Source of the DNA: a virus
Lineage: Duplodnaviria > Heunggongvirae > Uroviricota > Caudoviricetes
IMG/VR virus record: IMGVR_UViG_3300001567_000141
Strand: one strand, 5' to 3'
Length of the DNA: 10,498 nucleotides
Below, piece after piece: positions 1,439 through 4,822 of the stretch; the first letter of the stretch is position 1; each line of letters starts with the position of its first letter. The translations under genes were made by a program, and so were the position numbers. The notes under the pieces are model-generated. The model saw nothing but the letters and a program-made list of their open reading frames with translations, was not told the DNA's origin and did no database searches.

Positions 1439-2191
1439 TTATCTCGTCACCTTCCTCAATTGCGCTTCCGCGTATGCTTCTTCCTGCCAGCACTTTGTTA
1501 CCAGTTTACCAATGACGTCCGCATACCCCTTATACCACTGATAATCGGTCAGGTCTGGTACCAGCTTCTGGACATGACGTCGTGCCAGCGTGGTCGGTAA
1601 ACGACTAAACCGGTTTCCATTACAACGCCCACAAATCTTATATACCGGTACGCCATGAAACCGGGTTCTTTTTTCATCCAGAACAATCCCTTTACCCTTA
1701 CACCCTCTGCACGCTGTGCTGGCTTCGCCCTTACCATGGCAATGCTGACATAGTTCCTTCACCCATTCTTCCTTGATTACAGATTCCCCGCGTCTGTAGT
1801 GTTTCACCACTTCGCGCAATACATTATAAAATCCCGTACCTGAACAATGCTCACAGCGAGCCTTACTTGCCGCAGACCTGGAGTAATCAGCAAAGGCAAA
1901 ACTCACGAGGTAAGGAATAATCTGTAACCGGATTTCTTCACTCAATTTGTTCAATGTCGGGTTATCCAGTGCCATCGCGTAATTTAGCAGGCCTTCAATC
2001 GCAAACTGAGGGTCCTGAACACCAACTTTTGCCAGAAATAAGGCCAACCCAAGTGGTGCTTTCGACTGCACCATCCCCTGCGCTGCCATTACATCCGTAA
2101 TTGTTAAACAACCGGTGCCTGTCGCTGGAGCGTCATCGCTCAATTTTGGAGATTTTGGGGAGTAATATTTTGGTAAGGCTTCAAGGTTCAT
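1439..2191 (-). CDS. quuQ: Q-family late-gene antiterminator (250 aa)
   Basis: Track ORF 1439..2221 starts at TTG; the in-frame ATG at 2189-2191 (MNLEALPKYY...) with GTGGAG upstream gives 250 aa; several CxxC pairs (CEHCSGTG, CQHCHGKG, CRGCKGKG, CGRCNG) typical of phage-82-type Q zinc fingers. Confidence 0.85.
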   Translation of the reverse strand: MNLEALPKYYSPKSPKLSDDAPATGTGCLTITDVMAAQGMVQSKAPLGLALFLAKVGVQDPQFAIEGLLNYAMALDNPTLNKLSEEIRLQIIPYLVSFAFADYSRSAASKARCEHCSGTGFYNVLREVVKHYRRGESVIKEEWVKELCQHCHGKGEASTACRGCKGKGIVLDEKRTRFHGVPVYKICGRCNGNRFSRLPTTLARRHVQKLVPDLTDYQWYKGYADVIGKLVTKCWQEEAYAEAQLRKVTR

Positions 2192-2204: not shown

Positions 2205-3254
2205 TTACGCCAGTACGCCAATTGCCAGCGCGCGATCGATAAAACGAAATATCAGCTCCAGTTGGGAGCCATACTTATCTTCAAATGCCACTGTATCCGT
2301 ATGCAGCTCGTTGTGATGCTTTCTGCACAAAGGCAACACAAAGAGATCATGTGCTTTTGTTCCCATTCCGCCCTGCCCGTGACCAATCAGATGATGCGGA
2401 TCGTCGGCTGGCATACCGCAGCAAGCACACGGCTGTGTCTTAACCCAACGTGTGTATTTCTCCTTAACCCAGCGGCGACGTTTAGGCAGCTTCATGAAAG
2501 ATTCCGGAGACTCTGGATCAACGGTGATGCTTACCACCGTCTTTTCCTGTGGTGATTTTTGTTGCTGGTGGGCGTAAGGCAACGGTGCAAGATTTTTTGT
2601 GCGTTGTTTCAATATGCTGGTGGCGGTCTGCTCTCCCGGTACGATGTCGCTTTCGCGGTACACCGAGCAGATTTTTTCCGCTGGTAATCCCAGCGAACGA
2701 CGCGATACAGCCTCAGGTAGTGCATCCACCACCTGATTGCAGACCGCCCACCAGGATAATTCAGCCAAAGATAATTCCCGCTCCTGCGTACCGCTTATTG
2801 CGTGACGGATGACGTCAATCACCCATGCTGTCAGATTTTGTTGAGCAAGCAGCTCCAGTGATTCCGATGTCTGGTCACGCAGTTGGTTGTCGCAGTGCCA
2901 GCACAACACCATTGCGCCGGTACCATAACGGTGAATGACTGTTTCAGTGTGATGGTAATCGCCATTAGGCCACTGGCAGGATGTAACATGACGTAATAGC
3001 CAGTCGGACAATGCGCCAACGCCGCCAGCAGCACGAATCACCCGTTCGTTACTAAAAAACGGCAGCAATGTTTTGTCTTCCGCCAGCGGCTGGCGAACGG
3101 CAGGAACGACTCCGGATGGCAGATTACGCATGCTTTTTGGTTCCGGTTCCACCAGCACTCGAGGATTATGAAATATCTGTATGGATTCACGGCCCGGCTT
3201 AAGGACCACCAGCCCAAGCTCAGGCACCAGAACAGGTCTAAGTAATACCCGCAC
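2205..3254 (-). CDS. ydfU: Qin prophage protein YdfU (349 aa from GTG), two HNH-like motifs
   Basis: Track ORF 2205..3293 begins at GTG 3293; the in-frame GTG at 3252-3254 has GGAGG 4 nt upstream and sits 1 nt after the stop of the upstream ORF; stop TAA 2205-2207 lies 14 nt before the quuQ ATG. Motifs DYHH...GTG...LCWHCDN and DDPHH...GQGG...LCRKHHNELH seen in the translation. Exact start uncertain (alternatives GTG 3293, ATG 3131). Confidence 0.8.
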   Translation of the reverse strand: MRVLLRPVLVPELGLVVLKPGRESIQIFHNPRVLVEPEPKSMRNLPSGVVPAVRQPLAEDKTLLPFFSNERVIRAAGGVGALSDWLLRHVTSCQWPNGDYHHTETVIHRYGTGAMVLCWHCDNQLRDQTSESLELLAQQNLTAWVIDVIRHAISGTQERELSLAELSWWAVCNQVVDALPEAVSRRSLGLPAEKICSVYRESDIVPGEQTATSILKQRTKNLAPLPYAHQQQKSPQEKTVVSITVDPESPESFMKLPKRRRWVKEKYTRWVKTQPCACCGMPADDPHHLIGHGQGGMGTKAHDLFVLPLCRKHHNELHTDTVAFEDKYGSQLELIFRFIDRALAIGVLA

Positions 3255-3255
3255 G

Positions 3256-3534
3256 TTACCTCCAGATCCGTTGCTGGAAAGTGCGGGACGCACGTGGTGG
3301 GCGTTCGGAATAAGGCAGCCTGACAGAGATTATCCAGTGCCGATAGTCGAGACTGAGAGCTTTCTTAACCTCGAACCCGCGCCTGCGGTAAGAATGAATC
3401 AGCCATTCGGCCTGTTCTGCAGTGCATGGAGGGTGCTGGAACCATTCAGACTTGAATGCGTGAGAATACCGCCCGTGCGTGCAGGCAAGAACGGGCGAAT
3501 TATCAGAATTGTAATATTTTGCGTTGCGTGCCAT
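3256..3534 (-). CDS. Hypothetical 92-aa protein with a Cys/His-containing N-terminus
   Basis: ORF 3256..3534; ATG at 3532-3534 preceded by GGAG about 8 nt upstream; product MARNAKYYNSDNSPVLACTHGRYSHAFKSEWFQHPPCTAEQ...; stop abuts the ydfU GTG start. Name not recognised; may correspond to a shorter small-protein annotation. Confidence 0.5.
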   Translation of the reverse strand: MARNAKYYNSDNSPVLACTHGRYSHAFKSEWFQHPPCTAEQAEWLIHSYRRRGFEVKKALSLDYRHWIISVRLPYSERPPRASRTFQQRIWR

Positions 3535-4068: not shown

Positions 4069-4224
4069 TTACTCCTCAGGTTCGTAAGCTGTGAAGACAG
4101 CGACCTCCGTCTGGCCGGTTCGGATTCGTACCTCGCAGAGGTCTTTCCTCGTTACCAGTGCCGTCACTATGACGGTTAAACAGATGACGATCAGGGCGAT
4201 TAACATCGCCTTTTGCTGCTTCAT
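4069..4224 (-). CDS. hokD: Hok-family small membrane toxin (51 aa)
   Basis: Not in ORF track; manual translation from ATG 4222-4224 gives MKQQKAML...FTAYEPEE, stop TAA at 4069-4071; AGGAG 9 nt upstream. Confidence 0.9.
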   Translation of the reverse strand: MKQQKAMLIALIVICLTVIVTALVTRKDLCEVRIRTGQTEVAVFTAYEPEE

Positions 4225-4295
4225 AGCCTGCTTCTCCTGTCAACGCAAAGCAGAAGTGTCACCTTCGGTGCGAAACAGAGATGTCATGCTTTGGT

Positions 4296-4583
4296 TCAGA
4301 GAATGCGTTTGACCGCCTCGCTATATACTTCCGAGCGTTCTCTTTTCCCAACAGAAATCACGAAAACGACAACTTTCTCGTCTATAACCTGGTATACAAG
4401 GCGATAGCCTGAAGACCGGAGCTTAATCTTGTAACAATCAGGCATACCACGGAGCTTGTTTGCTTCAATCCGGGGTGACTCAAGTACTTCAACCAGCTTC
4501 TTTTTCAACTGTTCACGTACCGTCGAGCCCAGCTTTCGCCATTCCTTTAGTGCCCGCTCGTCAAAATCCAGAAAATACGCCAT
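4296..4583 (-). CDS. relE: Type II toxin RelE, ribosome-dependent mRNA endonuclease (95 aa)
   Basis: ORF 4296..4583; product MAYFLDFDERALKEWRKLGSTVREQLKKKL... recognised as RelE; ATG overlaps the relB stop as ATGA. Confidence 0.95.
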   Translation of the reverse strand: MAYFLDFDERALKEWRKLGSTVREQLKKKLVEVLESPRIEANKLRGMPDCYKIKLRSSGYRLVYQVIDEKVVVFVISVGKRERSEVYSEAVKRIL

Positions 4584-4822
4584 CAGAGTTCATCCAGCGT
4601 CACACGTACTGGCTTAGGATTACGAAGCCGTTCTTTCACTATCTCCACAAGTTCAGCATCTTCATCACTCAGGAGTGTCTGTTTGAACGGCAAGCGTTCA
4701 TTGTCAGCGATATACTCGAGCATGAGACGAAGCGCTTCAGAAGGAGTTACACCCATTTTTTCAAGCGCGGCGTAAGAACGCGCTTTAAGTTCATCGTCAA
4801 TACGCAGGTTAATGCTACCCAT
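4583..4822 (-). CDS. relB: Type II antitoxin RelB (79 aa)
   Basis: ORF 4583..4822; product MGSINLRIDDELKARSYAALEKMGV... recognised as RelB; ATG at 4820-4822 with GAGGTG upstream. Confidence 0.95.
   Translation of the reverse strand: MGSINLRIDDELKARSYAALEKMGVTPSEALRLMLEYIADNERLPFKQTLLSDEDAELVEIVKERLRNPKPVRVTLDEL

Follow-up and report, generated by a model that had tools for sequence, protein, structure and literature searches.

Does the prophage protein YdfU act as a nuclease and, if so, with one HNH active site or with two? The window, i.e., the whole stretch of 10,498 nucleotides of phage DNA analyzed here, raises this question with a single gene, whose product carries two HNH-like blocks, one in each half. 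The original prediction read both blocks as tandem HNH motifs and regarded the protein, in the position of a nin-region nuclease or of an accessory defense gene, as the best candidate in the window for an uncharacterized activity.

Location and Gene Structure of ydfU

Chromosomes of the E. coli K-12 lineage were 100% identical to the window, which represents the Qin cryptic prophage from cspB/cspF via ydfT, ydfU, rem, hokD, relBE, dicC/dicA, and dicB to an IS2 element. In these genomes, ydfU is annotated as encoding a "DUF968 domain-containing protein". Its coding sequence occupies positions 2205–3254 on the minus strand and comprises 349 codons and a stop codon (GTG start 3254–3252; TAA stop 2207–2205). 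Both our CDS call and the K-12 annotation confirmed the predicted coordinates, and the gene indeed has relBE/hokD/rem on one side and the Q gene ydfT on the other. N-termini of homologs (MRxLL) line up from YdfU residue 1, and for this reason the 349-aa start is favored over an upstream GTG at position 3293.

A GGAGG Shine–Dalgarno sequence, read from the sequence at positions 3259–3263 (minus strand), precedes the GTG by 4 nt. It sits inside the last codons of an upstream ORF of 92 aa (3256–3534, minus strand; WP_012304870.1, phrog_1212), whose TAA stop codon (3258–3256) lies between GGAGG and GTG and ends 1 nt before the latter. This arrangement is typical of translational coupling, and the two genes are probably coupled. 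The 92-aa ORF itself had no match in Pfam. On the other side, the ydfU stop codon is separated by 13 nt (2192–2204) from the ATG of ydfT (1439–2191, minus strand), a Q-type late antiterminator gene (Pfam Antiterm, E = 3.7e-54). Besides the Antiterm domain, YdfT showed a match to the DnaJ-like CXXCXGXG zinc finger at aa 149–194 (E = 1.3e-8). Three proteins of 607 aa (P0003, P0004, and P0006) consist of YdfU (99% identical) fused in frame to YdfT; as only 13 nt separate the two genes, a small indel or the loss of a stop codon would yield such fusions. The family PF27659, which is found on these fusion entries, was rejected as a YdfU family, since plain YdfU entries lack it, and was assigned to the Q part.

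In K-12, a strong Rho-dependent terminator upstream of ydfU silences the gene. It ranks with the strongest for which E. coli measurements exist, and terminators of this kind have been implicated in keeping toxic prophage genes silent (PMC9160355). The phage PhiR42_1 (host in the phage collection: ECOR13) carries an intact copy with 99.4% identity, and we therefore judge the K-12 gene to be intact.

A Zinc-Finger HNH Domain at the C-Terminus

Profile searches clearly assigned the C-terminal half of YdfU. Pfam DUF968 (PF06147) matched aa 160–346 over its full profile (1–171) with 256.8 bits at a gathering cut-off of 27.8 (E = 1.4e-76), and PHROG 96, "HNH endonuclease", spanned the whole protein (E = 2.8e-171). 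The Pfam family HNHc_6 (PF16784) came near the threshold but stayed under its gathering cut-off, and YdfU is devoid of an Orf/NinB-like N-domain; RecA_dep_nuc (PF16786) reached 17.8 bits compared to a threshold of 26.9. Both scores fall short of the Pfam cut-offs, and RecA dependence and nicking are not transferable to YdfU with confidence. No family was found for YdfU in NCBIfam.

From an alignment of 29 sequences, AlphaFold2 produced a model with a mean pLDDT of 82 and values above 90 in the C-terminal domain (aa 251–349; 2208–2504, minus strand), and the best structural match of YdfU was P1 Ref. The HNH core was delimited to aa 276–318 (2301–2429, minus strand) by means of conservation, alignment to Gp16 of the Staphylococcus phage phiNM1, and secondary structure. 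In the model, it forms a strand (285–288), a second strand (306–309), and a helix (311–319), i.e., the beta-beta-alpha-metal fold. The core shows the CxxC ... Cxx[C/H] arrangement of the zinc-finger HNH subclass, and it places a histidine suited as general base at the end of the first strand (H288) and metal-binding histidines on the helix (H314 and H318). Conservation was counted over 29 diverse full-length homologs. The zinc ligand C276 was present in all 29, C279 and C310 in 26 each, and position 313 was occupied by Cys (16) or His (10); among the remaining residues, H287, H288, H314, and H318 were each kept in 25 of 29 sequences and D303 in 28.

Comparison with Gp16 further supports this assignment. 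The C-terminal domain is 41% identical to the Gp16 HNH domain over 59 aa (E = 5e-11), and C276, C279, H288, C310, H313, H314, and H318 align one-to-one with Gp16 C145, C148, H157, C181, H184, H185, and H189, all of which have been mutated and tested in Gp16 (PMC12817073). Judged from the alignments and the model, aa 276–318 are a genuine zinc-finger HNH domain.

A Family-Specific N-Terminal Domain with a Putative Zinc Site

For the N-terminal domain (aa 1–190; 2685–3254, minus strand), an AlphaFold2 model of these residues is confident (pLDDT 90.2, pTM 0.72). The domain comprises three short strands, helices within aa 56–89, a loop (90–104), a hairpin (105–110/113–118), a short helix (119–125), and two further helices (131–152 and 163–188). 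Among 1.84 billion representatives, 174 clusters at 50% identity matched at E ≤ 1e-3; the first 165 residues define a family that is small and specific to phage proteins. Pfam has no family over aa 1–160, and phrog_11007 covers aa 2–134. A Pfam search with 35 N-domain sequences yielded no HNH family match at E ≤ 10, a profile search against PDB sequences returned chance matches only (S100-A9 and RPA12), and Foldseek detected nothing significant for the N-domain model in the PDB.

The first of the two predicted HNH-like blocks (aa 99–123; 2886–2960, minus strand) falls within a module at aa 93–140 (2835–2978, minus strand). Its signature reads C93-Q94 ... [YWF]-[H/C]101 ... beta-hairpin ... C118-W-x-[C/H]121-D122-N123 ... 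N140. Across 48 homologs that are 25–90% identical to YdfU, C93 and C118 were found in 47 and Q94 in all 48 sequences. Position 101 was His in 33 and Cys in 11 (44/48), and position 121 was Cys in 26 and His in 22, hence Cys or His throughout. The most frequent combinations at positions 93, 101, 118, and 121 were CHCC (22), CCCH (11), and CHCH (10); four cysteines never occurred together, and at least one histidine was always present. Downstream of C121, D122 (41/48), N123 (36/48), and R126 (28/48) were kept to varying degrees, and N140, which lies on the next helix, in 43 of 48 sequences. C93, H101, C118, and C121 thus behave like a structural zinc site. The topological order equals that of the C-terminal HNH domain, with the first ligand pair before the hairpin and the second at the strand/helix junction. 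With its zinc knuckle, hairpin, and helix, the core appears weakly HNH-like, and the module may have originated as a duplicate that later decayed.

One Credible HNH Active Site Rather than Two

If YdfU were a true double-HNH enzyme, D99-x-H101-H102 ... C118-x2-C121 and the C-terminal block would both be active, and the protein could cut both strands. The N-terminal block, DYHHTETVIHRYGTGAMVLCWHC (aa 99–121), and the C-terminal block, DPHHLIGHGQGGMGTKAHDLFVLPLCRKH (aa 285–313), do resemble each other: the pattern D.HH.{5,30}LC..[CH], picked after the data had been seen, occurred twice in 0 of 200,000 shuffles of YdfU and once in a fraction of 7.5e-5. Amino acid composition does not account for the resemblance. 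Internal duplication as an explanation detectable by sequence was nevertheless rejected. BLASTP of the N-terminal against the C-terminal half gave no signal (E = 1.7 for the pairing of the blocks), and hhalign comparison of the family profiles of both parts (29 homologs; three slicings) returned probabilities below 1%. At this level of comparison, no homology between the two blocks was detected.

The blocks also differ in the residues that would be required for catalysis. While the C-terminal set is kept in 25–29 of 29 homologs, H102 is found in only 20 and D99 in 17 of the 48 sequences compared for the N-terminal block, H108 in 7, and position 110 is Tyr in 16 and His in 13. No conserved His or Asn occurs among these 48 homologs at the helix site equivalent to H314/H318. 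Position 101 changes from His to Cys in 11 of 48 sequences, which points to the behavior of a zinc ligand and not of a general base. The model places the "HH" pair of the N-terminal block in the loop ahead of the hairpin and not where strand 1 ends. Added to this, the N-domain shares no profile similarity with the C-domain or with Pfam HNH families, and the Foldseek search was negative. It is thus very unlikely that the N-terminal module is catalytic, and a double-HNH enzyme is highly improbable. What stands of the tandem-motif claim is that both blocks are present and that profile search (DUF968), structure prediction, and Cys/His conservation support the second; the first showed no profile similarity to HNH families, and its conserved Cys/His residues are the putative zinc ligands and not a catalytic set. 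YdfU has a single credible HNH active site.

Modularity and Loss of Active-Site Residues in the Family

The two domains are joined by a linker (aa 191–250; 2505–2684, minus strand), which has pLDDT values of 48–75 and varies in length and sequence in the homolog alignment. It is poorly conserved, except for an ESDI motif near aa 201–204. In three homologs (P0083, P0058, and P0079), the N-domain is 90–92% identical to that of YdfU but the C-domain only 59%, indicating that the modules recombine independently, with recombination in or near the linker.

The same YdfU-like N-terminus (48–49% identical) was also found joined to foreign domains in eight sequences (P0135, P0138, P0140, P0142, P0143, P0144, P0145, and P0165). 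By Pfam, these are portal, capsid, tail-collar/fiber, or tail-tip (GpJ) domains, or the appended part is glycine-rich, with break points at approximately aa 150–300. We rejected them as real architectures. Most likely, they are chimeras of assembly or gene calling or products of prophage deletions, although their recurrence is odd, and all eight were left out of the structure alignments.

Other homologs have lost one set of residues and retained the other. In P1 PdcB (L003:3905–4948) and the homologs P0186, P0215, and P0252, both zinc sites and the signature of the N-domain are preserved, but H287, H288, H314, and H318 are missing. By its residues, PdcB is probably an inactive nuclease, and its label "HNH endonuclease", like such labels on PdcB-type homologs in general, is probably an over-annotation. 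The reverse decay is seen in P0213 and P0222, in which C279 is replaced by Thr, C310 by His or Arg, and the residue at position 313 by Glu, while H287, H288, H314, and H318 are kept.

PdcB-type homologs indicate that the family can persist without an HNH active site, and hence that its conserved role may not be cleavage. YdfU could then be mainly a non-catalytic DNA-binding or regulatory protein, in which the two zinc modules bind DNA or the transcription or recombination machinery and the nuclease site is optional. This would agree with the position of the gene, which is always found directly upstream of a late-gene activator (Q in lambdoid phages and Lpa in P1), and with the phenotype of Gp16, which is fully abolished, including the loss of toxicity, in zinc-finger mutants but not in catalytic-site mutants (PMC12817073). 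However, YdfU and 25 of 29 diverse homologs possess the full HNH catalytic set, a sign that catalysis is under selection in the YdfU branch, and adjacency to Q is common to other nin-region genes without a role in transcription. We consider a mainly non-catalytic YdfU unlikely and keep it in view mainly because of PdcB, in which the zinc sites are retained and the HNH histidines are lost.

A Fixed Position Between RusA and Q

The surroundings of ydfU were compared with those of its orthologs in the phages SfV, mEp390, Eeyore, and YeP3. In all four, the ortholog closes the early operon: it follows RusA and immediately precedes Q, even though the type of Q differs among these phages. Three of the four carry a gene for an anti-repressor or "regulator" (~250–270 aa) between RusA and the ortholog, and no NinG was annotated in the viewed nin-region stretches. 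Place and orientation between RusA and Q are thus fixed in unrelated lambdoid phages, with tight or overlapping gene junctions. In P1, pdcB follows phd-doc-pdcA and precedes lpa. Toxin–antitoxin genes are located a few small genes upstream on the same strand both in Qin (hokD, relE, and relB; 4069–4822) and in P1 (phd-doc; L003:3092–3693). Since SfV, mEp390, Eeyore, and YeP3 lack such neighbors, this likeness of Qin and P1 may be a coincidence.

These data bear on the suggestion that ydfU is an accessory gene for defense, counter-defense, or exclusion, i.e., a prophage moron whose nuclease guards the lysogen or attacks competitors. A search of PADLOC-DB yielded no defense model match for YdfU apart from a chance match to PglZ (E = 0.078), and nothing for the two ORFs upstream of ydfU. 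The fixed position in functional phages, together with the tight or overlapping junctions, instead marks a core early gene, and the toxin–antitoxin neighbors of ydfU in Qin are missing from the four phages named above. The defense suggestion was thus not borne out, and a role of this kind is decidedly unlikely. A further alternative would be a packaging-associated HNH protein that helps terminase to cut cos or pac, as in the case of HK97 gp74. Genes of this type, however, adjoin the terminase genes, whereas ydfU is an early-region gene located upstream of Q; SfV has a separate HNH gene (orf53) at the end of its genome, beyond the lysis genes; and YdfU exceeds gp74-type proteins threefold in size. 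A function in packaging is therefore barely conceivable.

A Two-Module Model for YdfU

We favor an account in which YdfU combines a C-terminal HNH nickase with a non-catalytic N-terminal zinc domain for targeting, and assign it a probability of roughly 0.62. YdfU would be the product of the last nin-type early-region gene of a lambdoid prophage, just before Q, and would consist of two modules (aa 1–190 and 251–349) on either side of a flexible linker of ~60 residues. The C-terminal module is predicted to be a zinc-stabilized HNH nuclease of the DUF968/DUF1364/Ref/HNHc_6 group. A structural zinc ion, presumably held by C276, C279, C310, and H313, would stabilize the beta-beta-alpha core; H288, the last residue of the first strand, probably serves as the general base that activates water, and H314 and H318, possibly together with D303, may bind the catalytic divalent metal. 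By analogy to phiNM1 Gp16 and P1 Ref, the most likely activity of YdfU is the nicking of recombination or replication intermediates in the lytic cycle, in which RecA may assist as with these two proteins. The helical, family-specific N-terminal module would hold a second zinc ion (C93, H101, C118, and C121) on a hairpin-plus-helix scaffold, which resembles an HNH core whose catalytic residues were lost or never present. Its most likely contribution is to target or regulate the nuclease by binding DNA or protein rather than by cutting.

A bolder version, which we advance as a tentative and rather doubtful idea, is that the N-terminal 190 residues of YdfU and PdcB represent an undescribed zinc-binding domain, i.e., a duplicated HNH core that has lost catalysis ("pseudo-HNH") and cooperates with the active C-terminal HNH domain, and that in the PdcB branch both modules are purely binding. 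If so, the N-terminal module might, for example, hold one of the strands, or a substrate that is branched or bound by RecA, and thereby direct nicking.

For the two-module account, the practical outcome is a residue map with seven C-terminal residues, four putative N-terminal zinc ligands, and the domain borders, and the prediction that YdfU has one active site and two zinc ions. The gene belongs to the "y-ome" of E. coli K-12, the nuclease role of its product has the status of a prediction, and a listing from 2024 still includes YdfU as uncharacterized (PMC11551758). In the literature searched, we found no experimental report on YdfU or any full-length homolog.

Comparison with Known Systems

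The candidacy of YdfU as a nuclease is not new, as its assignment to the His-Me finger superfamily dates from 2017: Jablonska et al. named it in group 7 together with YbcO (PDB 3g27), listed DUF968 in the same group, and proposed a role in recombination (PMC5714182). YbcO itself had been predicted as a nuclease in 2016 (PMC4999995). The original description of YdfU as a protein of unknown function and the best candidate for an uncharacterized activity thus overstated its novelty, all the more as PHROG 96 and RefSeq phage entries carry the label "HNH endonuclease". The only new element here is the predicted Cys3His/Cys2His2 zinc site of the N-terminal module with its weakly HNH-like fold, together with the PdcB branch devoid of an active site; YdfU reveals no new kind of system.

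Several known proteins share part of this architecture. Lambda NinG/Rap, a branch-specific HNH endonuclease, is encoded in the nin region, flanked by the replication genes and Q, a slot comparable to that of ydfU. However, the NinG profile had no match on YdfU at E ≤ 1, and NinG belongs to His-Me group 24, in contrast to group 7 for YdfU (PMC5714182). YbcO of the DLP12 prophage (PDB 3g27; DUF1364) is a single domain of 96 aa that lacks the N-domain and the linker of YdfU, and the two show marginal sequence similarity (hmmsearch, E = 0.49). As a full-length homolog, P1 PdcB has 26% identity over 91% of YdfU and shares the N-domain signature (CQ ... WC ... CWHHDN ... N) and the C-terminal zinc ligands. 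Its active site differs, with PHH changed to PYI, H314 to Gln, and H318 to Glu, and pdcB is non-essential in P1.

P1 Ref (PDB 3plw; Pfam RecA_dep_nuc) differs in its N-terminus, which is a basic unstructured tail of 76 residues (PMC4330346). YdfU has no such basic tail but a folded domain with a predicted zinc site, and the genomic setting of Ref is unlike that of ydfU. Early in infection, the S. aureus phage phiNM1 expresses Gp16 (HNH "subclass 6", Pfam HNHc_6), an HNH nickase that depends on RecA (PMC12817073). Like YdfU, it is encoded in the early region and consists of two modules with a zinc-finger HNH domain at the C-terminus, and both proteins have the spacing CxxC-x8-H ... CxxH-H-x3-H in common, while the NinB-like N-domain of Gp16 is absent from YdfU. 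Ref and Gp16 are the closest characterized relatives of YdfU. Both phage nucleases depend on RecA and influence how the host responds to DNA damage as well as the lysis–lysogeny decision.
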